DNA of 64,000 nucleotides from Roseateles sp. (GTDB lineage: Bacteria; Pseudomonadota; Gammaproteobacteria; Burkholderiales; Burkholderiaceae_C), in contig JAEUPJ010000064.1 in the NCBI GenBank assembly GCA_016790285.1, positions 312 to 64,311 on the forward strand. The letters run 5' to 3'. Shown here piece by piece: positions 28,210 through 48,369 of the stretch; positions within the stretch are counted from its first letter, which is position 1; every line of letters starts with the position of its first letter. The translations under genes were made by a program, and so were the position numbers. The notes beneath the pieces were generated by a model. The model saw nothing but the letters and a program-made list of their open reading frames with translations, did no database searches and was not told the origin of the DNA.

Positions 28210-29055
28210 ATGCTTCGCCTTGCCTTCGCTGTCGCCATGACCCCGCTGCTGCTCGCCGCCGCCCCGGCGCGCGCCGAGCTGCCCGAGCGCCTGGCCGACA
28301 CCGGCTTCGGCGGCCCGGCGTTGCGGGCGTTCGAGCCGCGGTTCGCGCTGTGGTCCGACGGCGCGGCCAAGCAGCGCTGGATCGCGCTGCCGCCGGGCAC
28401 GCAGGTCGACGCCAGCCAGCCCGACGCCTGGCGCTTCCCCGTGGGCACGCGGCTGTGGAAGACCTTCAGCGTCGACGGCCAGCCGGTGGAGACGCGCCAC
28501 CTCGTGGTCGGCCCCGGCGGGCAGCTCGACGCCGCGACCTACGTCTGGCAGGGCGGCGAGGCCCGCCGCGCGCCGGCCCGGGGCGTGGTGCTGACGCTGC
28601 CGGGCGGCCGCCGCTACGAGCTGCCTTCGACCGGCGACTGCATGGCCTGCCATGCCGGTGCGCGCAGCCCCGTGCTGGGCTTTGCCGCGCTGCAACTGGG
28701 GCCCGCCGTGCCGGCGCTGGTGCGCAGCGGCGTGATCGCCAACGCGCCGCCGGCCTGGCGCGAGCAGGCGCCGGACTTCATCGCCAGCAGCCCCACCGAA
28801 CACGCCGCGCGCGGCTACCTGCACGGCAACTGCGGCCACTGCCACTTCAGCGGCGGCGTACCGGTGCCCCTGCGCCTGGCACTGGACGTCGGCCAGCCCG
28901 CAGCCGCCGTGGACGGTGCCGCCGTGCTCAAGCGCGCCGGCACGCGCAACCCCTACCAGCAGATGCCGCCCCTGGGCACCCGCGAGATCGATGCTCAGGG
29001 CCTGGCTGTGTTGGCCCGTCACTTCCAACCGTTGAACCCGGAGATCCGCCCATGA
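28210..29055 (+). CDS. periplasmic protein with two CxxCH heme-c motifs
   Basis: Signal peptide (MLRLAFAVAMTPLLLAAAPARA), the motif LWSDGAAKQRWIALPPG, and the heme motifs CMACH and CGHCH. Confidence 0.6.
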   Translation: MLRLAFAVAMTPLLLAAAPARAELPERLADTGFGGPALRAFEPRFALWSDGAAKQRWIALPPGTQVDASQPDAWRFPVGTRLWKTFSVDGQPVETRHLVVGPGGQLDAATYVWQGGEARRAPARGVVLTLPGGRRYELPSTGDCMACHAGARSPVLGFAALQLGPAVPALVRSGVIANAPPAWREQAPDFIASSPTEHAARGYLHGNCGHCHFSGGVPVPLRLALDVGQPAAAVDGAAVLKRAGTRNPYQQMPPLGTREIDAQGLAVLARHFQPLNPEIRP

Positions 29056-29579
29056 AAGCTCTCATCCCCCTGCTCATCCTGCTGGCCGGCTCGGCCCAGG
29101 CCGCCGACCGCATCGAGCGCGGCCGCTACCTCGTCAACACCAGCGGCTGCGCCGACTGCCACACGCCGATGAAGATGGGCGCCAACGGCCCCGAGCCCGA
29201 CGCGGCGCGCCACCTCTCGGGCCATCCCCAGGGCTTCAGCATCACGGCGCCGGTGGCACCGCCTGCCGGGCCCTGGCTGGTCGTCATCGCCAACAGCGGC
29301 ACCGCCTACTCCGGCCCGTGGGGCCTGAGCTTCTCCGCCAACCTGACCCCCGACCCCGAGACGGGCCTGGGGCGCTGGAGCGAGGCCGACTTCGTGCAGA
29401 CCATCCGCACGGGCCGGCACCTCGGCCGCGGTCGCCAGGTGCTGCCGCCCATGCCCATCCCCGTGTACAGCCAGATGACGGACGACGACCTCAAGGCCGT
29501 CTTCGCCTACCTGCAGACCCTGCCGCCGGTGCGCAACAAGGTGCCGGACCCGCTCCCGCCCGCCGCGCCCGCGCGCTGA
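29052..29579 (+). CDS. c-type cytochrome
   Basis: Signal peptide, GRYLVNTSGCADCH, and a distal MP axial-ligand region (VLPPMPIPVY). An ATGA overlap with the upstream gene is present. Confidence 0.8.
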   Translation: MKALIPLLILLAGSAQAADRIERGRYLVNTSGCADCHTPMKMGANGPEPDAARHLSGHPQGFSITAPVAPPAGPWLVVIANSGTAYSGPWGLSFSANLTPDPETGLGRWSEADFVQTIRTGRHLGRGRQVLPPMPIPVYSQMTDDDLKAVFAYLQTLPPVRNKVPDPLPPAAPAR

Positions 29580-29617
29580 GGGCTGACGCAACGCCAACCT
29601 TCCTTCTGGAGATCCCC

Positions 29618-30046
29618 ATGACCCTCATCACTCCCGCCCGCCTGGGCCTGATGTCCGCCCTGTGCCTCGTCGCTGCCGCCGTGATCGCCTTCAGCGAAGA
29701 AGCGCAGGCCGCCACCTCCGCGTGCGAAGACACGCCCGCGCTGCAAAAGCGCCTTAACGACTTCGACGCCCGCTGGAATGCGAGCGACGCCTGGGGCCTC
29801 ACGGCGCAGTTCGCGCCCGACGGCAGCCTGGGCGCCGAGAGCGCGGCAGGCCGCCAGGCGGTCTACCGCGAGCTGGTGGAGCGCCTGGGCCGCTCGCAAG
29901 CGCCGCGCCAGACCCGCGTCGTGCGCGCCACGCCCGTGGGCGCGGCATGCCTGGTGGACGTGCAGGTGCGCAGCGGCGAACGCAGCGAGGCCGGCCTCTT
30001 CCTGCTGGCGGCCTCGCGCGAGGGCGGCATCGTCGCGATGCGCTGA
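29618..30046 (+). CDS. secreted NTF2/SnoaL-like (DUF4440-like) protein
   Basis: Signal peptide. LNDFDARWNASDAWGLTAQFAPDGSL is typical of the SnoaL/SgcJ-like fold. The assignment is tentative. Confidence 0.45.
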   Translation: MTLITPARLGLMSALCLVAAAVIAFSEEAQAATSACEDTPALQKRLNDFDARWNASDAWGLTAQFAPDGSLGAESAAGRQAVYRELVERLGRSQAPRQTRVVRATPVGAACLVDVQVRSGERSEAGLFLLAASREGGIVAMR

Positions 30047-30087: not shown

Positions 30088-32661
30088 TCAGGTCACGCCC
30101 TGCGCGGCCGCTTGAGGCTCTGCGTGGCTGGCTGCGCGCACGAGGTCCTGCACGACCTCGGCAAGCCGCCCCGGCGCGAGCGGCTTGTGCGCCACATAGA
30201 CCCGGGCCCGCGCCGCCTGGATGGCGACGGCCGCATCCATGTCGCCGGTGACCAGCAGCGCCGGCAGCGTCGGCGCTCGCAAGGCCCCGCGCAACTGCGT
30301 GAGCTCATCGAGCCCGTTGAGGCTGCCCAGGTGCAGGTCGCTGAGGAGCAGCGACAGCGGGGGGCGTGTCGGGTCGAGCGAGTTCTTCAGGGCGGCGGCG
30401 TCCGCCGCTGCGTAGACGGTGTAGCCCCAGCGCCGCAACAGCGCCGCCGTGGCTTCGCGCACGTCGGCATCGTCCTCCAGCAGGCCGATCACGCAACCTT
30501 GCGGCGCGTCCGCCCTGGCGGCGGCCTGTGCGACAAGCCTGGCGGCCCCATCGGCCGCGAGCGGCAGTTGCAGCGTCGCCGTCGTGCCCTGGCCCGGCGG
30601 GGAGACCAGCGACAACGGGTGGCCCAGCAGCTCGGCCGCGCGCCGCACGATGGACAGGCCGATGCCCAGCCCCTCCGCGGCCTTCGTCGGGTTGAGCCGC
30701 ACGTGGTCGCGAAAGACCTCTTCGAGCTTGTCGGGCGGGATGCCGGGGCCGCTGTCCTGCACGTTCAGCAGCACGGTGTGGCTGCCGCGCTCCAGGCTCA
30801 CGCGCACGTGGCCCGTGTCGGTGTACTTGATGGCGTTGGAGACGAGGTTGAAGACGATGCGGCGCAACAGGTGGCGGTCCGAGACGACCTCGCCCTCGGC
30901 CGGCGTCACGTGCAGCGTCAGGCCTTTGCGCTGGGCCAGCCCACCGAAATGCAGCGTCACCTCGTGCAGCAGCTCGGCGAGCGACACAGGGCCGGTGTGG
31001 GGCGTGTACTGCCCGTTGTCGAGCCGGCCCAGGTCCATCAGCGCGTCGAGCATGTCGCTGAGCGACGCGGTGCTGCGCCGCACGCTCTGCAGCCAGGCGC
31101 CAAACCTTGACGGGTCGCGCCTGGCGTCGTCACCCAGCTCCGCCAGCATGCCCAGGGCGTGCGCGGGTTGGCGCAGGTCATGGCAGGCGGCCGCCAGCAG
31201 CCGGATGCGTGAAGCGCTGCGCTGCTCGAGTTCGCCGTTGCGCTGCGCCAGTTCGGCCGAGACGCTGGCCAGGCGCCGGCCACGGCGCACGGCCATGCCC
31301 AGGGCCACTGCCGCGAGGGCCCCGCCTAGCAGCGCGATGCCAAAGGCCACGACCCAGCCGCGCTGGCGCTCGGCCTGCAGTTCGGCCTCGGCCTTGAGCT
31401 GCGTGTTCTCCTTGTCCTTGGCGGCGACGTTGAGCTTTTCCTGCAGTTCGATGCGCGCGGTTTCGCCTGCCAGGCGTTGCACTTCTTCGGCTGCTTGGTT
31501 GGCGTCCTTCAAGGCCGCCAGAGCCGCTTCGTGTCGGCCGAATCTCTCGAAGAACTTCGAAATGGCCAGCTTGTAGACGCGCGTGGGTTGCGGGCCGAAC
31601 TCCGATCGGTCAGCGAGCAGCCCGTTCAGCTGCTGGACCTCGCGCAGGCCGAGCGCAAAGGCTTTCGCCGTGCCGACATTGGTGAGAATCTCCAACGTCA
31701 CGCGGCTTCTGAATCCCGAGATCGTCTTGGCGGGTGCGTCAAACCGCCGGCTTTCCTCCAGCAGGGCCAGTGCCTCGGAGTAGCGATGCGCGCGATCGAG
31801 CGCGCGGGCGAACGAGATCAGGGTGAAGGCGGAGTCATGCGCGCCCAGCATTCCGCTTCGCACGGCAGGCAAGGCAGCGGCCATGGCCTGGAGCGCCCCG
31901 CTCAGGTCGCCCGCGCTCAACTTGGATCGAAACATCATCGCGTCGAGGTTCGCGCGCAAGGCAGCAAACTCGGAATCTCTCAATTCGTGGCTTGCACTTT
32001 CCAGAAGCGCGTTCAGTCTTGCCGAGCGAGGATCGGCGCGCAGGGTGGCCTGGACGATGTCGACCATGCAGTAGCCGCGCTGGAAGGGAGCGATGACGTA
32101 GTTCAACTGCGCTGCCCGAACTTCGATGGCGTCATTGAAGCGATTGGCGCTGAGCAAACCCATGACTTTGGTTTCCAGGACGAAGAACTTTCGTGCCGGG
32201 TCTCCCAACTGCAGCGCCAGTGCCTGCAGGTCCTCGGTGCTCATCAGGCCAGGGCATTTGTGTGGCCACGTGTTGCTGGCGGCCGCGACGGCGACATCGA
32301 AAAGCTCACGAACGTAATCCGGGCCTGCCGATTTGGCCGTCTCGATGTGGTCCTTGGCGGCGTTGCATTCCAGCAGGGCCGCATCGGCCACGAGCAGGTA
32401 CCACGCGGCGGCCCGCAAGCGACTGCGGACGTTGCCCGCCCGCTGGGCCTCGCTCAGCTCGGCAAATGCCGTTCGTTGCGCCAGCCCGCGATCGCGCATG
32501 GCTGAGCCGAAGTACCCCATGACGAACCGCTCACGCCATTCGTGATCGATTCGATCCGCCGCCGGTGGTGGCCCGCCGGCGGCTGCCCCGATCGGGAGCA
32601 GGAGCGCCATCCACAGGCTCCACGCCCCCAGCGCATTTCGTCGTGCATTGCCAGCCGTCAT
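30088..32661 (-). CDS. hybrid sensor histidine kinase/response regulator, paralog 1 (subfamily A)
   Basis: 857 aa. Domain order: signal/TM; about 400 aa of helical periplasmic region starting IDHEWRERFVMGYF; the coiled coil ELQEKLNVAAKDKEN; a TM helix (about 436-457); the H-box AAACHDLRQP (His494); the ATPase motifs NAIKYT, DSGPGIPP and GLGIGL; and a REC domain (Asp775 in LLLSDLHL, Lys826 in HKPL). Confidence 0.9.
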   Translation of the reverse strand: MTAGNARRNALGAWSLWMALLLPIGAAAGGPPPAADRIDHEWRERFVMGYFGSAMRDRGLAQRTAFAELSEAQRAGNVRSRLRAAAWYLLVADAALLECNAAKDHIETAKSAGPDYVRELFDVAVAAASNTWPHKCPGLMSTEDLQALALQLGDPARKFFVLETKVMGLLSANRFNDAIEVRAAQLNYVIAPFQRGYCMVDIVQATLRADPRSARLNALLESASHELRDSEFAALRANLDAMMFRSKLSAGDLSGALQAMAAALPAVRSGMLGAHDSAFTLISFARALDRAHRYSEALALLEESRRFDAPAKTISGFRSRVTLEILTNVGTAKAFALGLREVQQLNGLLADRSEFGPQPTRVYKLAISKFFERFGRHEAALAALKDANQAAEEVQRLAGETARIELQEKLNVAAKDKENTQLKAEAELQAERQRGWVVAFGIALLGGALAAVALGMAVRRGRRLASVSAELAQRNGELEQRSASRIRLLAAACHDLRQPAHALGMLAELGDDARRDPSRFGAWLQSVRRSTASLSDMLDALMDLGRLDNGQYTPHTGPVSLAELLHEVTLHFGGLAQRKGLTLHVTPAEGEVVSDRHLLRRIVFNLVSNAIKYTDTGHVRVSLERGSHTVLLNVQDSGPGIPPDKLEEVFRDHVRLNPTKAAEGLGIGLSIVRRAAELLGHPLSLVSPPGQGTTATLQLPLAADGAARLVAQAAARADAPQGCVIGLLEDDADVREATAALLRRWGYTVYAAADAAALKNSLDPTRPPLSLLLSDLHLGSLNGLDELTQLRGALRAPTLPALLVTGDMDAAVAIQAARARVYVAHKPLAPGRLAEVVQDLVRAASHAEPQAAAQGVT

Positions 32662-32902
32662 CCTCAGCCCCTCGCCGCCACGCTGTTGCCGCGCGATGTC
32701 TTGAAGGCGCGGTGGCCCATGTGGCCGTTGCGCCCGTCGTGGCGAAGCCTCTCACTGCGGGAGCAGGGCTGGCAGACCGCGATCGGGGTGTGGGGATCGC
32801 TTCGTGGTTTGGCGGCGTCGTGCTACCGCGCTACTGCATCCGGCATGCGCACGCGGCCCCTCGTGTCGGGCGTTCTGCACTTCGCGCAGCCCGTCATGCC
32901 CG

Positions 32903-35479
32903 CTAGTGCCGCGCCTTGCGCTTCTTGAAGGCCTCCCTCCACGTGTGCGCTGAGGGAGGGAGGCTTGGCGACGGCGCGGCGGCGCTGGGGGCGGACATCA
33001 GCTCCTTCACCAGCGCGTTCAGCTTGCTGGGGGCCAGCGGCTTGTGGGCAAGGTAGGCCCGGGCGATGGCTGCCTTGGCGGTGAGGGCGGTGTCCAGGTC
33101 GCCCGTCACCAGCAGTGCGGGCAGGTCTGGCGCATGCAGGGCTTCTCGCACGGTGGCAATGGCGTCCAGGCCGTTCGAGCCCACAAGGTGCAGGTCGGTG
33201 ATCAGCAGGTCAGGCGTGAACGGCCCCGCGGGCGATTCGGCCAGCAGGCTGCCAGCGTCGCTGGCGGCCCGCACGGTGTAGCCCCAGGAGCGCAGCAACG
33301 CGGCCATCGCGTCGCGAACGTCCACGTCGTCCTCGATCAGCGCGATGTGGCCGCTGCGGGATCGCGGCCTGGCGTCGATGGCGGCGGCGGGGATCTCAGG
33401 GGCGCCGGCCTCGCTGAACGGGAGCTGCAGGCTCACGGCCGTGCCCTCGCCCGGGGACGACGCGAACGTGAGCTCGTGCCCCAGCAGCGCGGCGGCACGG
33501 CGCACGATGGGCAGGCCGATGCCCAGGCCTTCGCCCCCCTTGATCGGGTTCAGGCGCACATAGTCGCAAAAGACATCGTCCAGCTTCTCCGGCGGGATGC
33601 CGGGGCCGCTGTCGCGAACGGTGAGCTGCAGGCCGTTCGCCACCAGGTGCGCGTCCACGCGCACGAAGCCGGTGTCCGTGTACCGGATGCCGTTGGACAC
33701 GAGGTTGAAGAGGATCCGCCGCAGCAGGGCGCGGTCGGAGAGCACATGACCCTGGACAGGTGACACCTCCAGGGTCAGGCCCTTGCGCCGGGCCAGGTTG
33801 CCGAAGTGCAGCTTGACGTCATGCAGCACGTCGGGCAGCGAGACGTCACCGAGCTGAGGGGTGTAGTGGCCGCTGTCGAGGCGGCCCAGGTCCATCAGCT
33901 CGTCGAGCATCTCCGCGAGTGACGCCGCGCTGCGACGCACGCTGTGCAACCAGTCGGTGAAGAGCGGTGCGCTGGGCTGCACGTCGCCACCCAGCTCGGT
34001 CAGCATGCCCAGCGCATGCACGGGCTGGCGCAGGTCGTGGCATGCGGCGGTGAGCATGGCACTGCGCTGCTTGAGGTCGGCCGTGACCATGGCCAGGCGC
34101 CTGCCACGTCGAACCGCCATCGTGAGTGCGCCGGCGGCGCACGCCACGCCACAGGCCGAGACGGCGAAGGCGATGATCCAGCCACGCTGGCGCGCCTCCT
34201 GAAGCTCGGCCAGGCTCTTGAGCTCGGCGTTCTCCTTGTCCTTGGCCGCCACGTTGAGCTTTTCCTGCAGCTCGATGCGCGCCTTCTCGTTGGCCACCTT
34301 CTGCTGCGCATCCGAGGCGCGGTTGGCGTCCTTGAGGGCCGCGAGGGCGGCTTCGTACCTGCCGAACTTCTCGAAGAACGTGGAGATGGCCTGCCGGGCT
34401 CCCTTCGCCGATTGCGGCCCGAAGTAGGCGGTGTCCTCGAGCAGGGATTCCATGTGCCGCACCACCTGCACGCCGCTGTCGTAGGCGTTATGCGTTCCCA
34501 GGGCGGCATAGGTCTCCAGCAGCGTGCGGCTGCGTGACATGCTCACCTGCTTGCTGTTCATGCCGAAGGCCCGGCTTCGGGCCAGCAGCTCCAAGGCCCG
34601 TTGCGGCTCGCCATGGCGTGCGTAGTGGCGGGCGAACAGCATCAGGTAGAAGGCCGAGTCCCGCTCGCCGGGCACGGCATTGAGCATGCCCGGCAGGGCG
34701 CGCTGCATGTATTGGCGCGCCGCAGCTGTCTGATGAGCACTGGCGGCGGCGCGATGCAGCATCCCGAGCACGTGCAGGTGCAGGGCCTCGAAGGCCTGGG
34801 TGTCGGTCAGCTTCAGCGCCGCCTGCAGCAGCCCATCGGCATGGTTGATCTCAGGGTTGGCGTTGAGCTCGGCCTGCGCGCGAGCCAGCAGCGAGTAGGC
34901 ACGCTGGCTGTCGGTGATGGCGTAGTCGAGTTGGCGGGCGGCAAGCTCGATGAGCTCGTTGAAGCGGTTGGCACGCAAGGCGGTCTGCACCCGCGCCTCG
35001 AGCACGAAGTACTGCCGCGCCGGGTCGCCCAGCCCGCGCGCCAGGGTCTCGATCTCGGCCTGGCTCAGAAGGCCGCGGCAAGGCTTGCCGGAAGCGCTGA
35101 TCATCGCGGCGACGGCGACGTCGAACAGCTCGGAGGGGTAGGCTTGGCCAGCAGCCCGCGCTTCGCTGAGGGATTCGTCAAGCACCTGGCAGTTGTCGGC
35201 GTCATCTTCCATGGCCATGAAGTGCCGCGCCGCAGCCCGAAGCCGGGCGCGTGTATCCGGGCTTTGGCGGGTGGCTTCGAACTCGGCAAGCGCCTTCTTC
35301 TGGGCCTGGCCGCGGTTGCGGAAGATGTCGGCGAAGTAGCCCATGACGAAGCGCTCGCGCCATTCGCGGTCGATGCGCTCGACAGGCCTGTCGGTGGCGT
35401 GCACGCAGATGTGCCCGGCCAGCAGCAGGATCAGGCCCGCAGTGCGCATGCCTTTCGCCAGGCGAGCGTTCATCGCCAT
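32903..35479 (-). CDS. hybrid sensor histidine kinase/response regulator, paralog 2 (subfamily B)
   Basis: Same architecture as paralog 1, with IDREWRERFVMGYF, LTAACHDLRQPVHALGMLTELG and ITDLHL. The TM-to-H-box linker is 11 residues shorter. The C-terminal tail is ...HTWREAFKKRKARH. Confidence 0.9.
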   Translation of the reverse strand: MAMNARLAKGMRTAGLILLLAGHICVHATDRPVERIDREWRERFVMGYFADIFRNRGQAQKKALAEFEATRQSPDTRARLRAAARHFMAMEDDADNCQVLDESLSEARAAGQAYPSELFDVAVAAMISASGKPCRGLLSQAEIETLARGLGDPARQYFVLEARVQTALRANRFNELIELAARQLDYAITDSQRAYSLLARAQAELNANPEINHADGLLQAALKLTDTQAFEALHLHVLGMLHRAAASAHQTAAARQYMQRALPGMLNAVPGERDSAFYLMLFARHYARHGEPQRALELLARSRAFGMNSKQVSMSRSRTLLETYAALGTHNAYDSGVQVVRHMESLLEDTAYFGPQSAKGARQAISTFFEKFGRYEAALAALKDANRASDAQQKVANEKARIELQEKLNVAAKDKENAELKSLAELQEARQRGWIIAFAVSACGVACAAGALTMAVRRGRRLAMVTADLKQRSAMLTAACHDLRQPVHALGMLTELGGDVQPSAPLFTDWLHSVRRSAASLAEMLDELMDLGRLDSGHYTPQLGDVSLPDVLHDVKLHFGNLARRKGLTLEVSPVQGHVLSDRALLRRILFNLVSNGIRYTDTGFVRVDAHLVANGLQLTVRDSGPGIPPEKLDDVFCDYVRLNPIKGGEGLGIGLPIVRRAAALLGHELTFASSPGEGTAVSLQLPFSEAGAPEIPAAAIDARPRSRSGHIALIEDDVDVRDAMAALLRSWGYTVRAASDAGSLLAESPAGPFTPDLLITDLHLVGSNGLDAIATVREALHAPDLPALLVTGDLDTALTAKAAIARAYLAHKPLAPSKLNALVKELMSAPSAAAPSPSLPPSAHTWREAFKKRKARH

Positions 35480-35609
35480 CGTCTAGGGCCCTTTCATGCC
35501 GGGGTGAGCAGAGCGTGCGGGGCTTTGCCACCACGCGCGCAGGGCAGCGTGTCATGGTTCAAGGGGGATCCCCATGCCCCACCCGGACAGGGGATGGCCG
35601 GGCGTCCGT

Positions 35610-38177
35610 TCAGGTGGCGGGCCCAGGCGGGTGGCCCGTGCGAGCGGAAGGGGAGCGGATGTGCGTCTTTACCAGCTCTGAGAGCTTGGCTGGCGCCAAG
35701 GGCTTGTGCGTGACGTGCACGCCGGCGTCGGCAGCCAGCGGCGAGATGGCCGTGTCCATGTCGCCTGTGACGAGCAGCGCTGGCAGCTCGGGGTCACGGA
35801 GGGCCTCGCGCAGGCGGTTCACTTCCTGCAGGCCGTCGCTGTTGTGCAGGTGCAGGTCAGTGATGATCAAGCCAGGGTGGTGTTGCTGAGCGGTGATCTC
35901 GGCAAGCACGGTCTGCGCGTCGCTGCCGAGGTGCACCACGTAGCCCCAGCGCCGCAGCAGCGCGGCCATCGCCTCGCAGACGTCGGCGTCGTCTTCCAGC
36001 AATGCGATCACGCCTCCCACGCAAGCGGTTGGCGCGGCCCGCGCCGGCCCGGGGCTGGTGGGTGGAGCCGGGCGGCGGGGCAGGTGCAGCGACGCCGTCG
36101 TGCCCTTGCCCGGCGGGGAGACCAGGGCGAGCTCGTGGCCGAGCAGCTCGGCCGCGCGCCGCACGATGGACAGCCCGATGCCCAGCCCCTCTTCCGCCTT
36201 GTTGGGGTTCAGGCGCACGTAGTCGCGGAAGATGTCGTCGAGCTTGTCGGGGGGGATGCCGGGGCCGCTGTCTTGCACGGTCAGCTCCAAGGCGTCGCCC
36301 TCCGGGTGGACATCCACCCGAACGACGCCCTCGTCGGTGTACTTCACGGCGTTGGCGACGAGATTGAAGATGATCCGGCGCAGCAGGTGCCTGTCCGAGA
36401 CGACATGGACTTCGGTGGTTGCCACCTGCAGGCTCAATCCCTTGCGCTGGGCCGGGCCGCTGAACTGCTGCATCACGTCGTGCAGCAGTTCAGCCAGCGG
36501 CACGTCGCTGAGCTGGGGCGTGTACCTGCCACCGTCCAGCCGCCCCAGGTCCATCAGTTCGTCCAGCCTGTCGCTGAGTGAATCGGCGCTGCGGCGCACA
36601 CTCTGCAGCCAGGCGCTGAAGCGGGCGGGCTCGCGCTTGGCGTCGTGGCCCAGCTCGGCCAGCATGCCCAGGGCGTGGGCGGGCTGACGCAGGTCGTGGC
36701 AGGCCGCAGCGAGCAACCGGATGCGTGAGGCGCTGCGATGCTCGAGCTCGGTGTTGCGCAGTTCCAGCTCGGCGGAGAGCCGGGCCAGCTGCCGCCCGCG
36801 TCGAACGGCCGTCCCGAGCGCTGCTGCAGTTCCGACCCCGCCCAGCAACGCGATGCCGAGGGCCGCGATCCAGCTGCGCTGGCGTTCGGCCTGAAGCTCG
36901 GCCTGAGCCCTGAGCTGCGAGTTCTCCCTGTCCTTGGCGGCGACCTTGAGCCTTTCCTGCAGTTCCACGCGGGCGGTCTCGCTGGCCAGTCGTTCCAGTT
37001 CTTCGCCCGCCTGGTTGGCCTCCGCCAAGGCGGCCAGTGCGACGTCGTGCTTGCCAAACCTCTCGAAGAACTTCGCGATGGTGATCTTGTGGCTGCGGGT
37101 GTGCTGGGGCCCGAACTCCGCCTTGTCGGCCAACAACCAGCTGAGATGCTGGACTTCGCGTAGGCCATGCGCAAAGGCCTTGGCGGTGCCGAGATTGGTG
37201 AGAACCTCCAACGTCACGCGGCTTCTGAAGGCCGATATCTGCTTGGCGGGCGCATTGAAGTGCTTGCTGTCCTCCAGCAGGGCCAGGGCTTCGCTGGAAC
37301 GATGGGCGCGATCGAGCGCTCGCGCGAAGGAGATCAGCGTGAAAGCGGAGCCGTGCGGGCCCAGGATTCCGCTGCGAACGGCAGGTAGGGCAGCGTCCAT
37401 GATCCGGAGCGCGCCCTTGAGGTCACCCTCAGCTAGTCTGGATCGGAACATCATCACGTCGAGGTTGGTGCGCAATGCTGCGAACTCGGTGCCTGCCAAC
37501 TCGCGGTTCGCGTCTTCCAGCAGCCCGTTGAGTTTGGGCGAGCCGGGGCTGGCGCGCAGGGTCGCTTGGACGAGGTCGACCATGCAGTAGCTGCGCTGAA
37601 AGGCTGCGATCGCGTAGTTCATTTGCGTGGTCCGCACCTCGATGACGTCATTGAAGCGATTGGCGCTCGCCAGGCCCAGGGCTTTGGCTTCCAGGACAAA
37701 GAACTGTCTTGCCGGGTCCCCCAGCTGCAGCGCGAGTGCCTGCAGTTCGCTCGCATCCATCAGGCCAGGGCATCGGTGCGGATACATGTTGCCGGCGGCA
37801 GCCACGCCAACATCGAAGAGCTCGCGGAGATAGGCTGCGCCGGCCGATCTCGCCGCCTCGATGGAGTCCTTGGCCAGTTTGCAATCCAGCAAGGCGGAAT
37901 CAGTCACGAGCAGGTACCGCGCGACGGCGCGCAGCTGGCTGCGCAGATCGCCGGATTGACGCGTTGCCGTCAGTTCGGCCCATGCGTGCCGTTGTGCCAA
38001 CTCGTTGCTGCGCAGGAGTTCCGCGAAGTACCCCATGATGAACCGGTCGCGCCATTCCTGGTCGACGCCGTCCTTGGTTTCGAGAACGGGGGCCATGGTG
38101 GCGGAGACGGGCAGCAACAGGCAGAGCAAGAGTTTGCAGAGCACCGTCCGGGTTGTTCGCGCATGGCCATTCAGCAT
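35610..38177 (-). CDS. hybrid sensor histidine kinase/response regulator, paralog 3 (subfamily A)
   Basis: Same architecture, with VDQEWRDRFIMGYF and RSASRIRLLAAACHDLRQPAHALGMLAELG. The start is ATG 38177; the track ORF begins at a TTG at 38183. Confidence 0.9.
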   Translation of the reverse strand: MLNGHARTTRTVLCKLLLCLLLPVSATMAPVLETKDGVDQEWRDRFIMGYFAELLRSNELAQRHAWAELTATRQSGDLRSQLRAVARYLLVTDSALLDCKLAKDSIEAARSAGAAYLRELFDVGVAAAGNMYPHRCPGLMDASELQALALQLGDPARQFFVLEAKALGLASANRFNDVIEVRTTQMNYAIAAFQRSYCMVDLVQATLRASPGSPKLNGLLEDANRELAGTEFAALRTNLDVMMFRSRLAEGDLKGALRIMDAALPAVRSGILGPHGSAFTLISFARALDRAHRSSEALALLEDSKHFNAPAKQISAFRSRVTLEVLTNLGTAKAFAHGLREVQHLSWLLADKAEFGPQHTRSHKITIAKFFERFGKHDVALAALAEANQAGEELERLASETARVELQERLKVAAKDRENSQLRAQAELQAERQRSWIAALGIALLGGVGTAAALGTAVRRGRQLARLSAELELRNTELEHRSASRIRLLAAACHDLRQPAHALGMLAELGHDAKREPARFSAWLQSVRRSADSLSDRLDELMDLGRLDGGRYTPQLSDVPLAELLHDVMQQFSGPAQRKGLSLQVATTEVHVVSDRHLLRRIIFNLVANAVKYTDEGVVRVDVHPEGDALELTVQDSGPGIPPDKLDDIFRDYVRLNPNKAEEGLGIGLSIVRRAAELLGHELALVSPPGKGTTASLHLPRRPAPPTSPGPARAAPTACVGGVIALLEDDADVCEAMAALLRRWGYVVHLGSDAQTVLAEITAQQHHPGLIITDLHLHNSDGLQEVNRLREALRDPELPALLVTGDMDTAISPLAADAGVHVTHKPLAPAKLSELVKTHIRSPSARTGHPPGPAT

Positions 38178-38333
38178 CGTCAACTCCTGATTGCCGCCCT
38201 GCTTTTAAGCGATGCAGTCACCGGTGCCGCGGCGCGCGATGCGCTCGCACGGCTGCCCCACGCTGCAGTGAAGCGAGGGCCCCTCCCAGCACGCACCCGG
38301 TCAGTCGCCCGGGATGGGTGCAGCAGACCTTGT

Positions 38334-40907
38334 TCAATGCCGGGCTTTGCGGCTTCTGTAGGAGGCCAACCACGAGTGCACCGAAGCTTTCGAGACGGCC
38401 GGCAGTGGCGCTGCGGCCTGTGGGTTGATCAGTTGCCGCACGAGCGCGTCCAGCTTGCTGGGCACCAACGGCTTGTTGGCGAGGTAGGCCCGAGCGAGCG
38501 CCGCCTGAGACGTGATGGCGGGGTCCAGATCGCCCGTGATGAGCAGCGCCGGCAGATCGGGCGTCTGCAGCGCTTCGCGCAGGGCGGCGATGGCCTCCAG
38601 GCCCGTCGTGCCGACAAGGTGCAGGTCCGTGATCAGCAGGTCGGGCTTGAACGGCACGCCGGGGGACTCTGCCAGCAGCGCGGGCACGCTGCCGGCGGCG
38701 CGCACGGTGTAGCCCCACGCCACAAGCAGCGCCGTCACGGCGTCGCGAACGTCCATGTCGTCCTCAAGGAGGGCGATCGTGCCGGTGCGCGCTGGCTGCG
38801 TGGCGCTGTCCTCGGCGGGGGCCTGCGCGGGGCTTGCCGCCACACTCAATGGCAGTCGCAGGCTCGCTGCCGTGCCGCCGCCCGGGGGCGAGAAGAGGTG
38901 GAGGTCGTGCCCCAGCAGGTCGGCAGCCCGACGCACGATGGGCAGGCCGATGCCCAGACCTTCGCCAGCCTTGATGGGGTTCAGGCGCACGTAGTCGCGG
39001 AAGGCATGTTCCACCTTCTCGGGCGGGATGCCGGGGCCGCTGTCGCGCACCGTGAGCTGCAAGTCCTCGGATGCGAGGTGCACCTCCACCCGCACGTAGC
39101 CCGTGTCGGTGTACCGGATGGCATTGGAGACGAGGTTGAACAGCATGCGTCGCAGCAGATGGCGGTCTGACACCACATGGCATTGCGCCTGCGCCATTTC
39201 CAGCGTCAAGCCCTTGCGCCGCGCAAGGCTGCCGAAGTGAAGCTGGATGTCATGAAGCACATCTGCCAGCGACACGTCACTGAGGTGGGGTGTGTACTGG
39301 CCACTGTCGAGCCGGCCCAGGTCCATCAGTTCGTCCAGCATCTCCGAGAGCGACGCCGCACTGCGGCGCACGCTCTGCAGCCACTCGCTGAAGCGGTCGG
39401 GATGGGGCTGCACGTCGCTGCCCAGCTCGGTCAACATGCCCAAGGCATGCACCGGCTGCCGCAGGTCGTGGCAGGCGGCGGTGAGCAGGGTGCTGCGCTG
39501 CTTGAGGTCGGCCGTGGCCATGGCCAGCCGTCGGCCACGCCGAACAGCCATGCCGAGCGCGGCTGAAGCGCCCGCGACGCCGCATGCCGCGACCCCGAAG
39601 GCGATGATCCAGCCCCGCTGGCGCGCCGCTTGAAGTTCGGCTTGGCTCTTGAGCTCGGCGTTCTCCTTTTCCTTGGCCGCGACGTGGAGCTTTTCCTGCA
39701 GCTCGACGCGCGCCTTTTCGTTGACCAGCTTCTGCCGTGCCTCCGCGGCCTGGTTGGCGTCCTTGATGGCTTCGAGGGCTGCTTCGTACCTGCCGAATGC
39801 TTCGAGGAATGCGGAGATCTCCAGCTTGGCGGACTGCACGCTCGCGGGGCCGAAGTAGTCGGCGTTCTTCAGCAGCGCCTCCATGTTCCGGACCTCGCGC
39901 ATGCCACTTGAGTAGGCGCTGGACGTGCCCAGCGCCGCATAGATCTCCAGCAGCGTGCGGCTGCGGTACATGCTCACGAGCTTGCTGTTGGTGTGAAAGC
40001 CACGACTTCGGTCAAGCAGGTCCAGCGCTCGCTGCGTTTCGCCGGTTTGCGCGAGGTGGCGGGCAAACAGCGACAGGTAGTAGGCCGAATCCCTCGCACC
40101 CACCACGCCGGAAAGCACGCCTGGCAGGGCGCGCTGCATGTACTGGTGGGCCGCAGCAGTCCGCTTGTCGTTGACGGCGGCGCGGTGCAGCCCGACCACT
40201 TGATGGAGGTACAGGGCTTCGAACTCACGGCTGTCCGTCAGTGCGAGCGCCTGCTGAAACAGCGCTTCAGCGCGGTTGGGTCCCGGTCCGGCGATCCTTT
40301 CAGCCTGGGCCCTGGCCCAGAGCGTATAGGCGCGCTGGAAGTCGGCGATGGCGTAGTCCGCCTGCCTGGCCCGGATCTCGAGCAGCTCGTTGACGCGGCC
40401 CGCGTTCATGGCGGCATAGGCGTGCCCCTCCAGCACGTAGTACATGCGGGCGGGGTCGCCCAGTTCCCGCGCCAGTGCCTCGAGCTCGGCCATGCTCAGG
40501 AACTCCTGGCAATGCGAGCCATTGCCGCTGCCGATGGAGGCGATGGCGAGGTCGAACAGCTCCGCGCGGTACTGCGGGCCCGCCGCGCGCGCGTCCCGCA
40601 GGGACTCGTCGAGGACCTTGCAGTCGGCGGAGTCGTCGTCGATGGCGTAGAAGAATCGCGCGGCGGCGCGCAGCCGCGCGCGAGGGTCCGTGCTGTGCCG
40701 CGTGGCCTCGAATTCGGCGACGGCCTGCGTCTGAAACCGCGCACGGTTGCGGTAGACGTCGGCGTCGTACCCCATCACGAAGCGTTCGCGCCATTCGCGG
40801 TCGATGCGCAGGGGGGCAGTGTCCGCACCCAACGCGCCTGGCGCGATGTACAGCAGGGCCAGGAACCCAATGAACAGGTGGAGGACGGCGCGACGGTGGA
40901 TCGACAT
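38334..40907 (-). CDS. hybrid sensor histidine kinase/response regulator, paralog 4 (subfamily B)
   Basis: 857 aa from ATG 40907 (MSIHRRAVLHLFIGFLAL...). It has IDREWRERFVMGY, the short linker LKQRSTLLTAACHDLRQPVHALGMLTELG, and the tail ...HSWLASYRSRKARH. Confidence 0.9.
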   Translation of the reverse strand: MSIHRRAVLHLFIGFLALLYIAPGALGADTAPLRIDREWRERFVMGYDADVYRNRARFQTQAVAEFEATRHSTDPRARLRAAARFFYAIDDDSADCKVLDESLRDARAAGPQYRAELFDLAIASIGSGNGSHCQEFLSMAELEALARELGDPARMYYVLEGHAYAAMNAGRVNELLEIRARQADYAIADFQRAYTLWARAQAERIAGPGPNRAEALFQQALALTDSREFEALYLHQVVGLHRAAVNDKRTAAAHQYMQRALPGVLSGVVGARDSAYYLSLFARHLAQTGETQRALDLLDRSRGFHTNSKLVSMYRSRTLLEIYAALGTSSAYSSGMREVRNMEALLKNADYFGPASVQSAKLEISAFLEAFGRYEAALEAIKDANQAAEARQKLVNEKARVELQEKLHVAAKEKENAELKSQAELQAARQRGWIIAFGVAACGVAGASAALGMAVRRGRRLAMATADLKQRSTLLTAACHDLRQPVHALGMLTELGSDVQPHPDRFSEWLQSVRRSAASLSEMLDELMDLGRLDSGQYTPHLSDVSLADVLHDIQLHFGSLARRKGLTLEMAQAQCHVVSDRHLLRRMLFNLVSNAIRYTDTGYVRVEVHLASEDLQLTVRDSGPGIPPEKVEHAFRDYVRLNPIKAGEGLGIGLPIVRRAADLLGHDLHLFSPPGGGTAASLRLPLSVAASPAQAPAEDSATQPARTGTIALLEDDMDVRDAVTALLVAWGYTVRAAGSVPALLAESPGVPFKPDLLITDLHLVGTTGLEAIAALREALQTPDLPALLITGDLDPAITSQAALARAYLANKPLVPSKLDALVRQLINPQAAAPLPAVSKASVHSWLASYRSRKARH

Positions 40908-41055
40908 GGCTTGCGGTCCTTTCTGGCAGCGGATGGGGGGTGGGGGCGATGCCTCCGACAACGTGCCTGCGAAGCGGCGTGCCTGGCGTCCAGGGCGGTA
41001 CCCCACGACCCGCTCGCCCCACTCGCCGCACTCGTACATGGCAGGTGGCGCCTAC

Positions 41056-43611
41056 CTATGCATGGCGTTCAGGCCCTGGCCGGGCCGTGTCCACCGAAGG
41101 CGGGCGAATGCAGGACCTGACCAGCTCGGCCAGCTTGCCTGGCGCCAGCGGCTTGTGCGCGAGGCGCACGCCCGCGGCCGCGGCCAGGGGTGCGATCGTG
41201 GTGTCCATGTCGCCCGTGACGAGCAACGCAGGCAGTTCCGGGTCCTGCAGTGCCTCGCGCAGCCGCGCGAGTTCCTCCAAACCGTTGCCGTGGCCCAGGT
41301 GAAGGTCGCTGATGAGCAGCTGCGGCTTGAGCTCATGGACGGCCATCTGGCCCAGCACGGCCTGCACGTCGCTGCCCGTGTGCACCACGTAGCCCCAGCG
41401 GCGCAGCAGCGCCTCCATGGCCTGGCAGACATCGGCGTCGTCTTCCAGCAGCGCGATCACGCCGCCGTTGGGGGGTGGTGCCGCAGGCTCGGCAGCCGCG
41501 GTACTGGCCTGGGGGGCCAGGCTGCAGGGCAGGCGCAGCGATGCCGTGGTGCCCTCGCCGGGGGGCGACACCAGGGCGAGCTCGTGCCCCAGCAGCTCGG
41601 CCGCACGCCGCACGATGGACAGTCCCACGCCCAGCCCCTCGGCCGCCTTGGTGGGATTCAGGCGCACATAGTCGCGAAAGACGTCGTCGAGCCGGTCCGG
41701 TGGGATGCCGGGGCCGGTGTCCTGCACGGTCAAGTGAACGACGTCGCCCTCGCGGTGAACGTTCACGCGAACGACGCCGACGTCGGTGTACTTCACCGCG
41801 TTGGCCACCAGGTTGAAGACGATGCGGCGCAGCAGGTGCCCATCGGACACCACATGACCCTGCGCAGCGGACACCTCCAGCAGCAGCCCCTTGCGTTGCG
41901 CAAGCCCCTGGAAATGCAGTGCCACCTCTTGCAGCAGTTCCGCGAGGGACACATCGCTGATCTGCGGTGTGTACTTGCCGCCGTCCAGCCGGCCCAGGTC
42001 CATCAGCTCGTCGAGCATCTCGCTGAGTGAGCCGGCGCTGCGGCGCACGCTCTGCAGCCACGCGCCGAAGCGGGCGGGCTCGCGTTGGGCGTCCTGGCCG
42101 AGCTCGGCCAGCATGCCCAGGGCGTGGGCGGGTTGGCGCAGGTCGTGGCAGGCGGCCGCCAGCAGCCGGATGCGTGAGGCGCTGCGCTGCTCGAGCTCCG
42201 AGTTGCGCAACTCCAGCTCGGCGGAGACCTTGGTCAGCCGCCGCCCGCGCCGCACGGCCAGGCCGAGTGCCCCACCTGCGGCGGCCACGCCGGCCATGGC
42301 CACCGCGAAGGCCACGATCCAGACGCGCTGGCGTGCCGACTGGAGCTCGGCGTCGGCCCTCAGGCCGGCGTTCTCCTGCTCCTTCGCGGCGACGTTGAGC
42401 TTCTCCTGCAGCTCCACGCGCGCCGTCTCGCTGGCGATGCGCTGCACCGTTTCCGCCGCTTGGATGGCCTCGCGCAGGGCCTTCAGGGCGGCCTCGTAGC
42501 GGCCATGCTTCTGCAGGAACTGGGAGATGACGTTCTTGTACGACTTCACGCGCTGCGGGCCGAAGGTCTCGGTGTCGCGCAGCAGGGTCTCGATGTTGTG
42601 GATCTCCCGCAGCCCTCGCGCGTAGCTGTCCGGCTTCGAGGCTTTGATGAGGATCTCCAGCGTCGCGACGCTGCGCAGCGCATCGAGGGTCTTGCTCGGC
42701 GTGCTGTCTGCCCTGCCGTCGTCCAGCATCGCCAGGGCTTCGTCGTGGCGGCCCATGTGGTTGAGTGCGCGGGCGAAGGCGATCACCTGGAACGCCGAAT
42801 CGCGCGCGCCCATCACGCCGCGCCGCATGCCCGGCTCGGCCGCCTTCATGTGCGCGAGGGCCGCCTTCTGGTCGCCCGCACTGAAGGCGACCCGGAAGGA
42901 AAGCCCCTGAAGCGCCGTCTCCAGCGCAGGGAACTCGCGCGCCGAAACCTTGCCGCGCGCCCGATCCAGCCATTCGCGGGCCCGGTTGTCCTTCGGCTTG
43001 GCCACCAGTTCGGCCTGTGCGACGGTGAGCATCGCGTAGACCTCCTGGAACGGGGCGACTGCGTAGTTCAGCTCCAGCGCATGCAGCGCAATGGCGTCGT
43101 TGTAGCGGTTGGTCCGGTGCAGGCCGATCGCGCGGGCCTCCAGCACGAAGAACTGCCGTGCCGGGTCACCCAGGCGCTGGGCCAGTGCCTCCAGCTCCTC
43201 GATGGGCATCTGCCCGGCGCAAGGCCGGGCGGGCGCATTGCCGGCCACGGCGGCCGCCACGTCGAAGAGGTCCCGCGGCAACTGCGCGGCGACCGACCGC
43301 GCCAGGGCCATGTATTCGTCGATGAGCTGGCAGTCGTCCTGGTCCGCGTCCATGGCCAGGAAGTAGCGGGCCGCGGCCCGCAGGCGCACGACCGTGCTGC
43401 CCTGCGTGCGCGTCGCCTCCAGGGCCTCCAGGGCACGCTTTTGCGCCAGGCCGCGGTCGCGGAAGACGTCGGCGTAGTAGCCCATGACGAACCGTTCGCG
43501 CCATTCCGCGTCGATGGCCGGCGCGGCGGGTTCGGCGCGCACGGTGAAGGCCAGAAGCAACAGGAAGAGTCCAGGCCAGATCCCGGCGCGCTTGCATTCG
43601 CCACCCGACAT
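41056..43611 (-). CDS. hybrid sensor histidine kinase/response regulator, paralog 5 (subfamily A, most divergent sensor domain)
   Basis: 851 aa from ATG 43611 (MSGGECKRAGIWPGLFLLLLAFTVRAEP). It has IDAEWRERFVMGYY and RSASRIRLLAAACHDLRQPAHALGMLAELG, followed by ATPase and REC domains. Confidence 0.9.
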   Translation of the reverse strand: MSGGECKRAGIWPGLFLLLLAFTVRAEPAAPAIDAEWRERFVMGYYADVFRDRGLAQKRALEALEATRTQGSTVVRLRAAARYFLAMDADQDDCQLIDEYMALARSVAAQLPRDLFDVAAAVAGNAPARPCAGQMPIEELEALAQRLGDPARQFFVLEARAIGLHRTNRYNDAIALHALELNYAVAPFQEVYAMLTVAQAELVAKPKDNRAREWLDRARGKVSAREFPALETALQGLSFRVAFSAGDQKAALAHMKAAEPGMRRGVMGARDSAFQVIAFARALNHMGRHDEALAMLDDGRADSTPSKTLDALRSVATLEILIKASKPDSYARGLREIHNIETLLRDTETFGPQRVKSYKNVISQFLQKHGRYEAALKALREAIQAAETVQRIASETARVELQEKLNVAAKEQENAGLRADAELQSARQRVWIVAFAVAMAGVAAAGGALGLAVRRGRRLTKVSAELELRNSELEQRSASRIRLLAAACHDLRQPAHALGMLAELGQDAQREPARFGAWLQSVRRSAGSLSEMLDELMDLGRLDGGKYTPQISDVSLAELLQEVALHFQGLAQRKGLLLEVSAAQGHVVSDGHLLRRIVFNLVANAVKYTDVGVVRVNVHREGDVVHLTVQDTGPGIPPDRLDDVFRDYVRLNPTKAAEGLGVGLSIVRRAAELLGHELALVSPPGEGTTASLRLPCSLAPQASTAAAEPAAPPPNGGVIALLEDDADVCQAMEALLRRWGYVVHTGSDVQAVLGQMAVHELKPQLLISDLHLGHGNGLEELARLREALQDPELPALLVTGDMDTTIAPLAAAAGVRLAHKPLAPGKLAELVRSCIRPPSVDTARPGPERHA

Positions 43612-43767
43612 TGGATGCCCCCTTTCCTTGCCTCGAGATCCCACCGCGGGGTCGCGCCGGAGCGCGTGTCGACTGGCGAGACTCGCACACCAGCGCTGCC
43701 GCCCCCAGTCCTCGAATCGGGTTTGGGGATCTCTTGGAGAAAGTGGCAATGCGTGATATCGCCGGTG

Positions 43768-43805
43768 CAAAAGGAAAGCCCCGGCCGGCGTGAGCCGGTC
43801 GGGGC
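43768..43805 (-). terminator. rho-independent terminator (minus strand) about 270 nt downstream of the PCuAC stop
   Basis: On the minus strand, GCCCCGACCGGC-TCAC-GCCGGCCGGGGC (12-bp stem with one G-T pair) is followed by TTTCCTTTTG. Confidence 0.5.
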
Positions 43806-44049
43806 GCAAGGGCGCCTGACGCCGCCCGGGACGCCACCGAGAGGGGCGTGGGGCTGCGGCGTTCATCACAGCGCAGATGGCCTGGCGGGGCGACACCCGG
43901 AGGTGACGCAGTCGGGGCCCGGATCTTGTGCTTTCGTGGTCGCGGGCGGATCGCGGACCGCCTCGCCAGGGGCCGCAACGTTGCCGGGGGCCATGCACTG
44001 GTGACGGGCTGAATCATCGTCGCGGCCCGGCGTGAACGATGCCGCGATC

Positions 44050-44072
44050 AGCCGGGGCGGGCCCGGCTTTTT
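44050..44072 (+). terminator. plus-strand terminator-like hairpin with no annotated plus-strand gene upstream
   Basis: AGCCGGG-GCGGG-CCCGGCT followed by TTTT, ending 5 nt before the PCuAC stop codon. Confidence 0.35.
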
Positions 44073-44076
44073 CCCG

Positions 44077-44532
44077 TCAGTGGCCGGTCGGCCGGGCGCG
44101 GGCCGGGGCGCGCACGGCCAGCGTCTCCACCTTGCCGCCCTCGCGCTCGATCGTCAGGGTCACCGGCACGGTGTCACCCGCCTTCACGGTGTCCTTCAGG
44201 CCCATCAGCATGACGTGGTAGCCGCCCGGCTTGAGCATCACCACCTGGCCAGCCGGCAGGGGCAGGGCGTTGATGGCGCGCATGCGCATGACGCCGCCGT
44301 CCATGCTCATCTCGTGGACCTCCACGCTGTCCGCCACGGGGGAGCTGCCGCCAACCAGGCGGGCGGCGGTCGGGGATTTCAGCTCGACGAACAGGCCGGT
44401 GGCCTTCTGCCCGGCGACGGTGGCGCGGACCCAGGGGTCGGTGGCGACCGTCTGGGCGCAGGCCGTGCCCGCCGGCAGGGCGGACAGCGCGGCGAGGCTG
44501 AGTGACAGCAGGAGGTGGTGCGTGCGATTCAT
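44077..44532 (-). CDS. periplasmic copper chaperone PCu(A)C (DUF461)
   Basis: Signal peptide. VHEMSMDGGVMRM...GGYHVMLMGL fits the H(M)x10Mx21HxM Cu(I) motif. Confidence 0.85.
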   Translation of the reverse strand: MNRTHHLLLSLSLAALSALPAGTACAQTVATDPWVRATVAGQKATGLFVELKSPTAARLVGGSSPVADSVEVHEMSMDGGVMRMRAINALPLPAGQVVMLKPGGYHVMLMGLKDTVKAGDTVPVTLTIEREGGKVETLAVRAPARARPTGH

Positions 44533-44634
44533 GGGCTTTCCTTGGTGGGGATGAGGGCCGCGGCAGCGAGCGGCTCGCGGTGAGGTTGCGGCGCGGGGGC
44601 CGGACGGGAGCGGGTGGCGGGCAGGCATGGCGCG

Positions 44635-46128: not shown

Positions 46129-46130
46129 GC

Positions 46131-48296: not shown

Positions 48297-48369
48297 GGTG
48301 AGATGGCCGCAAGCCCGCGGCGGGCGGTCCCTGACGGACGGCCGGCCACGTGCACTGGGGCGGGTTCGT

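Follow-up and report, generated by a model that had tools for sequence, protein, structure and literature searches.

How did five similar sensor kinases come to stand side by side in one bacterial genome, and what might they sense? The question is raised by a 64,000-nucleotide stretch of DNA from Roseateles sp. (assembly GCA_016790285.1, contig JAEUPJ010000064.1, positions 312 to 64,311; hereafter the window), in which positions 30088-43611 of the minus strand carry five consecutive, head-to-tail open reading frames (ORFs) for paralogous hybrid sensor kinases of 851-858 amino acids, spanning 13,524 bp. All five are hybrid sensor histidine kinases, with the required residues of the HisKA, HATPase_c and receiver domains present. 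With somewhat more confidence than doubt, we favour a lineage-specific tandem expansion of orphan hybrid kinases that lack an Hpt domain and whose diversified, periplasmic TPR-like inputs would act through an unlinked phosphorelay. The genes and the spacers between them are as follows.

HK1, 30088..32661, minus strand: 857 amino acids, A type; its receiver has diverged further than the other four, with the phospho-acceptor residues all kept.
HK2, 32903..35479, minus strand: 858 amino acids, B type, with a 24-residue linker from the transmembrane segment (TM) to the phospho-acceptor histidine and a ...KRKARH tail.
HK3, 35610..38183, minus strand: A type; 857 amino acids from a TTG at 38183, more likely 855 from an ATG at 38177.
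HK4, 38334..40907, minus strand: 857 amino acids, B type; its linker, shortened by 11 residues, is 24 residues long, and its C-terminal tail is ...SRKARH.
HK5, 41056..43611, minus strand: 851 amino acids, with an A-type kinase core, a 35-residue TM-to-histidine linker and a third sensor type.
Spacer between HK2 and HK1, 32662..32902, minus strand: 241 bp, the longest between kinase genes.
Spacer 35480-35609, minus strand: 130 bp.
Spacer 38184-38333, minus strand: 150 bp.
Spacer 40908-41055, minus strand: 148 bp.

Architecture of the kinases and fold of their sensors

A preliminary description of this DNA had assigned one architecture to all five proteins, and we found that the domains and topology hold in every copy. 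Each protein consists of a signal-like N-terminus, an all-helical periplasmic domain of about 400 residues, a conserved stalk helix, one TM, HisKA, HATPase_c and a receiver. HisKA, HATPase_c and Response_reg scored above their Pfam cut-offs in all five kinases; no Pfam domain did so within residues 1-460 of any of them. Hydropathy analysis showed a short N-terminal hydrophobic segment (below the threshold of 1.5 in HK2) and one strong TM at about residues 432-458. Small-residue motifs (VRA-E, VHA-T, VSA-T and ALG-A) follow the first segment, and by inspection the N-terminus resembles a cleavable signal peptide, whose removal would leave the protein with a single membrane pass. Lying between this signal-like N-terminus and the TM, the sensor is predicted to be periplasmic.

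The opening sensor motif D.EWR[ED]RF[VI]MGY and the H-box AACHDLRQP were both found in all five kinases, as described. The reported stalk motif, ELQEKLNVAAK[DE].EN, stood exactly in HK1, HK2 and HK5, whereas HK3 and HK4 deviate from it and read ELQERLKVAAKDREN and ELQEKLHVAAKEKEN, respectively. Type-specific motifs also recurred as claimed: RSASRIRLLAAACHDLRQPAHALGMLAELG is common to HK1, HK3 and HK5 (the A type), and LTAACHDLRQPVHALGMLTELG together with an RKARH tail is common to HK2 and HK4 (the B type). Invariant in all five proteins (HK1 numbering) are H494, N605/N609 of the N-box, D636/G638/G640 of the G1 box and G664/G666/G668 of the G2 box, as are E729/D730/D731, D775, T805 and K826 of the receiver. 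The proteins end about 20-40 residues past the receiver, and a Pfam search gave no Hpt match within any of them. Full-length HK1 matched solved structures over residues 463-702 only.

The ATG of HK3 at 38177 has AGGAG 6 nucleotides ahead of it, and that of HK4 at 40907 is preceded by AAAGGA; gene calls in ENA likewise give 855 and 857 residues. For HK4 and HK5 longer ORFs are also listed; these extend upstream into sequence that is not signal-like. The HK1 ORF is intact across 857 residues with a signal-like N-terminus, and public calls for it differ: NCBI lists a 537-residue C-terminal fragment from an internal GTG (P0003) and ENA a protein of 840 residues. Pairwise protein identity among the five copies is 49-66% overall. 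Identity at this level across 850 residues in five adjoining genes led us to reject chance resemblance. We also rejected an assembly artefact, as the copies differ by 34-51% and the order of the array agrees in three assemblies.

An AlphaFold2 model of the sensor, built from the five-sequence sensor alignment, was all-helical with high confidence (mean predicted local distance difference test score (pLDDT) of 89.9, predicted template modelling score of 0.84). In the model, about 18 helices, each 11-18 residues long, are followed by a terminal stalk helix of 54 residues that runs into the TM; there are no beta strands. A Foldseek comparison with PDB returned only TPR-type solenoids, Rap/Phr receptors at the top, and these Rap matches were weak (E about 1e-3, template modelling score 0.42-0.47, 10-16% identity). 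A profile search of PDB sequences gave no match to residues 1-460, and TPR hits in Pfam were below threshold (TPR_12 in HK1 with 16.8 bits against a cut-off of 30.1; TPR_10 in HK5 with 23.5 against 27.5). Judged from the modelled fold, the sensor is a predicted TPR-like solenoid, though it scores below the gathering thresholds of the Pfam TPR clan. The preliminary description had not recognised the arrangement as a described one, and our searches bear this out, with no described family in Pfam, NCBIfam, PDB sequences or Foldseek matches that covers the sensor.

Conservation within the sensor is concentrated at its two ends. Helix 1 (D.EWRERFVMGY) has 53% invariant columns and the stalk 44%; values elsewhere are 8-35%. 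C99 and C136 are kept in every copy of the array, with at least 90% conservation across the closer family, and a periplasmic C99-C136 disulfide is likely.

That Rap-Phr receptors head the Foldseek matches, and that solenoid interiors have diversified while transmission elements are conserved, might indicate that these sensors are periplasmic counterparts of the RRNPP receptors (Rap, NprR, PlcR), each with its own secreted peptide. We consider this improbable. The matches are as weak as is typical of any long TPR solenoid, RRNPP proteins are cytoplasmic, and neither the four spacers nor the region upstream of HK5 contains a Phr-like small secreted ORF. A bolder proposal, to which we would give equally little credence, is that the solenoid represents an extracytoplasmic receptor of a new class, one that recognises peptides or protein termini and is coupled directly to a kinase; it would be an outward-facing Gram-negative analogue of RRNPP, with the array as a diversified receptor battery and the B-type deletion flipping output polarity. 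If it were true, a single genome would sense several related cues and pass them, with opposite signs, into one phosphorelay. Phr-like peptide genes were a candidate in their own right and were rejected for the spacers and upstream region, where we found no plausible small secreted-peptide ORF.

Divergence, linker length and history of the array

To what extent have the copies become different from each other? We built neighbour-joining trees with 200 bootstraps from the five array proteins and 16 relatives. The full-length tree joined HK1 with HK3 (bootstrap 100), HK2 with HK4 (100) and HK5 with the HK1-HK3 pair (99). These groups are the two subfamilies proposed earlier, {1,3,5} and {2,4}, and the contrary grouping that had been named beforehand as speaking against them did not appear. 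The alternation along the DNA, A-B-A-B-A, holds for this split, but the sensors themselves follow the pattern A-B-A-B-C: the HK5 sensor is, as had been noted, the most divergent, at 44-47% identity to each other copy, and so is effectively a third sensor type. Identity between sensors is 69.5% for HK1-HK3 and 62.9% for HK2-HK4. The sensors are also more divergent than the kinase cores, as claimed, with identities of 40-70% against 63-80% for the DHp and CA domains. Between A and B types, the nonsynonymous divergence (dN) is 0.59-0.65 for sensors and 0.22-0.25 for cores (0.59 and 0.25, respectively, for HK1-HK2), about 2-4 fold higher in the sensor. The ratio of dN to synonymous divergence (dS) between paralogs is below 1 in every domain.

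The two types also differ in the segment that joins membrane and kinase. We measured this linker in 20 family members, starting at the basic residues that follow the TM and ending at the phospho-acceptor histidine. The A type (HK1, HK3, HK5) reads ...ELEQRSASRIRLLAAACHDLRQPAHALGMLAELG, and the B type is shorter by 11 residues ahead of the H-box. A length of 35 residues was found in 17 of the 20 proteins, 24 in HK2 and HK4 only, and 56 in one metagenomic relative. In the last of these (P0007), a 21-residue internal repeat, RLA..S.EL.Q.NGELE, occurs twice. The changes of -11 and +21 residues are multiples of helical or coiled-coil repeats, as expected if a continuous signalling helix, with no HAMP or PAS domain, were to connect the membrane with DHp. 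The B type, with its 24-residue linker and RKARH tail, is a derived form and a local novelty of the array.

Strict alternation raises the possibility that A and B copies form obligate heteromeric pairs and that the array is built from functional two-gene modules, a reading to which the parallel divergence of the pairs (66.5% and 65.5% identity) and the type-specific DHp sequences would lend support. We regard it as very improbable. The 11-residue linker difference would make A/B heterodimers structurally awkward, because about 16 angstrom of helix would put the H-boxes out of register. Moreover, the B type is confined to the array, none of the 15 other relatives tested has a 24-residue linker, all of these being single genes or a pair whose linkers are identical, and five genes leave HK5 unpaired. 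Paralogous kinases in general evolve to avoid heterodimerisation, which also counts against such pairs.

A duplicated A-B unit had been proposed as the origin of the alternation. This fits only as [B-A], that is, as HK4-HK3 and HK2-HK1, and is unconfirmed from the spacers. HK4-HK2 (66.5%) and HK3-HK1 (65.5%) have diverged almost equally, as would be expected if a [B-A] pair had been duplicated once and HK5 were an older A-like copy. No mutual similarity was detectable among the four spacers and the upstream region (the best pair had z = 2.1 against shuffles), so the duplication stays inferred. Separate domain trees complicate the history further. The sensor tree is ((1,3),5), whereas the DHp+CA and receiver trees are ((3,5),1), with HK3-HK5 bootstraps of 97 and 98.5; HK3 and HK5 are 80% identical in DHp+CA and 69% in the receiver, with HK1 outside. 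A sliding nucleotide comparison placed the switch of partner near alignment column 450, at the TM. HK3 would thus be a mosaic, its sensor closest to HK1 and its kinase and receiver closest to HK5, or the 3' half of HK1 has been replaced. The conflict between domain trees implies recombination or gene conversion overlaid on any simple duplication. In the history we propose, HK5 would represent the older A-like copy; the B type would then have been derived through the 11-residue linker deletion and gain of the basic tail; the [B-A] pair would have been duplicated; and, finally, 3' halves would have been exchanged among A-type copies.

The array is not confined to one assembly. Two independent freshwater metagenome assemblies in ENA, each from its own run (L008 and L009), carry the same array together with its flanks, from the PepSY_TM gene to PhoD. 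An exact look-up of the NCBI protein P0004 gave no match; the ENA variant P0026 did match. Compared with L008, the five genes are intact, with 97.3-99.5% protein identity, dN/dS of 0.10-0.35 and no frameshift or stop in any kinase copy. The flanking PCuAC and MalT-like genes had dN/dS of 0.11-0.12 in the same comparison, similar to the array genes. Between strains the 3' half of HK1 stood apart (window 30088-31300 against L008 14100-15392), with dS of 0.065-0.109 and dN of 0.019-0.033. This divergence is several times that of the other four genes and the flanks and hints at import of this segment by recombination.

These comparisons bear on whether the array might be a neutral by-product, its copies a redundant or decaying amplification without differentiation. 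The G+C content of the window is about 70%; that of the array is 0.67-0.70, against 0.72-0.75 for its flanks, and G+C at third codon positions (GC3) is 0.84-0.89 against 0.91-0.96. These lower values could mean weak expression, and kinase gene content varies between related genomes, as a redundant array would allow. GC3 of family members in other genomes is 0.82-0.90, and the low GC3 of the array suggests weak codon bias or low expression, not recent transfer. Redundancy nevertheless seems highly improbable to us: at only 49-66% identity, the copies have kept full-length ORFs and every catalytic residue, paralog dN/dS is below 1 in all domains, and strains differ in the array genes without frameshift or stop and with dN/dS well below 1. 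We thus found no sign of the decay that the preliminary description had named as possible counter-evidence. Together, the intact architecture and catalytic motifs, the phylogeny, the mosaic structure, the conservation between strains and the purifying selection, as well as the rarity described below, form the observed basis of our reading.

Relatives, neighbouring genes and the search for an output

If the array is a lineage-specific expansion, how widespread is the family from which it arose? An exhaustive HMMER search with the sensor profile against 1.84 billion representative proteins, with E up to 1e-3, yielded 25 clusters at 50% identity. All full-length sensor hits were of 846-875 residues with the same architecture, except for a 1448-residue TPR-repeat protein with a weak partial match. 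A word-indexed protein search yielded 3 matches, fewer than the profile search. Among 185,579 species genomes we found 7 loci in 4 genomes or metagenome-assembled genomes (MAGs), namely Pelomonas caseinilytica, Roseateles puraquae and two Burkholderiales MAGs; a scan of JGI metagenomes with a broader 10-sequence profile added 1 further locus with a single gene (L010). Relatives elsewhere are single genes, bar one tandem pair (L003), whose members are each other's closest relatives and have identical linkers. The MAG AWTP1-25 has 4 family copies, which are dispersed. The family therefore varies in copy number and location, and of the expansions seen the five-gene array is the largest.

One AWTP1-25 scaffold (L007) is syntenic with window positions 255-13745, at 75-98% amino acid identity. 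On that scaffold, two extra hybrid kinases (5671-8205 and 9770-12493) flank argJ (compare window 5861-10133), neither of them present in the window; one belongs to the TPR-sensor family and the other has a 7TMR-DISM sensor. Their absence from the window indicates that orphan hybrid kinases have been gained or lost at that spot.

The genes and regions around the array are the following.

Upstream non-coding region of HK5, 43612..44076, minus strand: 465 bp, with a terminator-like hairpin at 43798-43781 after the PCuAC gene, no sigma-70 consensus match and no credible small ORF.
Metal-uptake-like cluster upstream of the array, 44077-51386, minus strand: genes for two TonB-dependent receptors, a PepSY_TM protein and the copper chaperone PCuAC, followed further out by DUF2946.
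Three convergent genes just downstream of HK1, 28036-30046, plus strand: the first with two CxxCH motifs, cytochrome c-like and without a Pfam match; the second a Pfam-supported cytochrome c of 173 residues; the third (29618-30046) a secreted protein of 142 residues without a Pfam match.
MalT-like STAND regulator, 24709-27351, plus strand: 880 residues with AAA_22, TPR and a LuxR-type HTH, 3 kb from the array.

Further downstream lie genes for a hemerythrin-domain protein, the MalT-like regulator, a PEP-CTERM lectin-like protein and PhoD. The hairpin at 43798-43781 may end the metal-uptake-like operon and, as it separates the PCuAC gene from HK5, the array probably has its own promoter. The four spacers are all G+C-rich, and a promoter and terminator scan showed no terminator hairpins between the kinase genes. 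An Rfam scan matched only a tRNA far from the array, with no Rfam RNA in the spacers.

The preliminary description had reported neither an Hpt protein nor an output regulator in the array or its flanks. This stood in that no dedicated partner is encoded in the array or its immediate flanks, but it has to be amended for regulators slightly further away: the MalT-like protein at 3 kb, kept with the array in a second assembly, and a LytS/LytTR pair at 10 kb (LytTR regulator at 19559-20416, LytS-type kinase at 18372-19649). No NosP/FIST-type gene was found in the flanks. The loci of the relatives have no conserved neighbour; the genes beside them encode a phasin, a REC-HD-GYP regulator, an acetyl-CoA hydrolase, an aldehyde dehydrogenase, AraC regulators and PEP-CTERM proteins. 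The REC-HD-GYP-type regulator adjoins only the Pelomonas caseinilytica copy (L002), from which it is divergently transcribed.

These neighbours leave room for a scheme in which the receivers are internal regulatory or phosphate-sink domains and the kinases phosphorylate a conventional regulator directly, either the LytTR protein or an unlinked one. The lack of an Hpt domain in the five proteins and in the 64-kb window would suit such a scheme, as would the regulator beside the L002 relative. On the other side, the LytTR regulator has its own adjoining LytS-type kinase, the neighbours of the relatives are not conserved, and the receiver phospho-acceptor residues are all kept in the five copies. 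NahK/ErcS and other Hpt-less hybrid kinases, furthermore, normally use a separate Hpt protein (bioRxiv 10.1101/2023.08.23.554518). We therefore judge direct signalling unlikely.

For the tandem expansion feeding an unlinked phosphorelay, the following course of signalling is envisaged. The N-terminus would be exported and its first segment cleaved, giving a single-pass protein. The solenoid of roughly 18 helices would bind a periplasmic ligand, for which a TPR groove makes a peptide, a partner protein or a polymer the most plausible candidates, and the signal would travel through the conserved N-terminal helix and the long stalk helix, a putative membrane-proximal module. It would then cross the single TM and the fixed-length helical linker of 35 residues, in which there is no HAMP or PAS domain, and reach the phospho-acceptor histidine of DHp (H494 of HK1). 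The phosphoryl group would move to the receiver of the same protein (D775) and from there to an Hpt protein and a response regulator whose genes lie elsewhere. With three sensor types (HK1/HK3, HK2/HK4 and HK5), the array most likely brings different inputs to one phosphorelay or a small number of them, much like the multikinase networks around GacS/HptB or LuxU. A single downstream partner for all five, as suggested in the preliminary description, is a conjecture.

Several points weigh against this account. No ligand, Hpt protein or response regulator was identified, and no Hpt was found in the 64-kb window. The receivers of Hpt-less hybrid kinases are at times internal regulators and not relay steps. 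The TPR similarity is generic, which makes a peptide or protein ligand only a prior; signal-peptide cleavage is judged from inspection alone, and the proposed disulfide from the periplasmic location alone. The full-length AlphaFold2 monomer has pLDDT below 50 at residues 430-552, the TM and DHp region, and so does not support continuity of the helix across the membrane. A sigma-70 scan gave no consensus-like promoter site. Synonymous sites between paralogs are near saturation, so that the order of duplication and the direction of conversion cannot be fixed.

A side observation concerns surface proteins. Three PEP-CTERM proteins are encoded in the window, at 5861-6532, 13869-14399 and 23744-24721. 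A PEP-CTERM gene directly adjoins a family kinase in L004 (12996-13646), in its near-copy L010 and in L007 (12667-13338). Because three relatives adjoin such genes, a link of the kinases to PEP-CTERM surface proteins is conceivable; the adjacency may also reflect the mere abundance of such genes in these bacteria.

Comparison with known systems

Set against described systems, this hybrid kinase family of an uncultured bacterium of the Burkholderiales from fresh water is otherwise ordinary, and nothing in the array gives evidence of a new signalling principle. The best NCBIfam model for the five proteins is that of the NahK/ErcS C-terminal region (NF041832, near_NosP_CTERM), with 233-253 bits and E of 1e-69 to 1e-75. 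These scores lie below the model's cut-off of 400, and those for NF041831 (158-186) lie far below its cut-off of 1500; the array kinases are thus best regarded as relatives of NahK/ErcS in kinase type and not as members. They share with NahK/ErcS the form of a hybrid kinase without Hpt. Several kinases of this type converge on a separate Hpt protein in the GacS/HptB network of P. aeruginosa (bioRxiv 10.1101/2023.08.23.554518). NahK, however, is cytoplasmic, carries PAS domains and is paired with the nitric oxide sensor NosP, whereas the array kinases have a periplasmic TPR-like sensor and one TM.

TorS, ArcB and BvgS resemble the array proteins in their HisKA-HATPase_c-receiver core. The TorS sensor is all-helical and periplasmic; that of BvgS is large, likewise periplasmic and followed by one TM. 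The TorS model gave 131-148 bits against a cut-off of 676.5 (TIGR02956/NF008543), and the array proteins have no Hpt domain; cut-offs of TorS/ArcB/BvgS-type models are 676-982, with the array scores far below. These kinases differ from the array in having their own C-terminal Hpt, and in the sensor, which is a four-helix bundle in TorS and a Venus-flytrap in BvgS.

Periplasmic TPR-like sensing has precedents. VbrK/VxrA of Vibrio is a kinase with TPR-like helical repeats in its periplasmic sensor, where binding of a protein partner is suspected (PMC8534201). It has a small sensor with PAS-like and TPR-like parts and is not a hybrid kinase, whereas in the array the whole 400-residue sensor is a predicted solenoid that continues into the stalk; VbrK/VxrA structures (7CUS/7LA6) gave no sequence match and were not among the top 50 fold matches. 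The Hanks kinase PknS is another precedent, of different architecture. The RRNPP proteins Rap, NprR and PlcR are TPR solenoids of similar size, the best structural match, and bind short peptides in a groove. They differ in being cytoplasmic and soluble, without fusion to a kinase, and the array is without adjoining pro-peptide genes. Of the parts of two-component signalling, input domains are understood least, and the array supplies one that is periplasmic, compact, modelled with confidence and so far uncatalogued.

A parallel for the array as a whole is found in the evolution of kinase families. Lineage-specific expansion typically gives orphan kinases, and hybrid kinases are prone to such expansion (PMC1630713). 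The expansions described by Alm, Huang and Arkin resemble the array in their duplicated orphan hybrid kinases without an adjoining regulator and in input domains that diverge fastest. The array is in effect a natural experiment, with shared transmission and kinase modules, three sensor types and two linker lengths in one genome, and it is suited to questions about sensor specificity after duplication, linker length and output, and the insulation of orphan hybrid kinases from a phosphorelay or their convergence on it. Paralogous kinases are generally scattered, with no significant clustering bar the B. subtilis kin locus (Alm, Huang and Arkin 2006, PMC1630713), whereas the five array copies have been kept head-to-tail. 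This tandem retention is the unusual aspect of the locus and a counter-example to the usual scattering.

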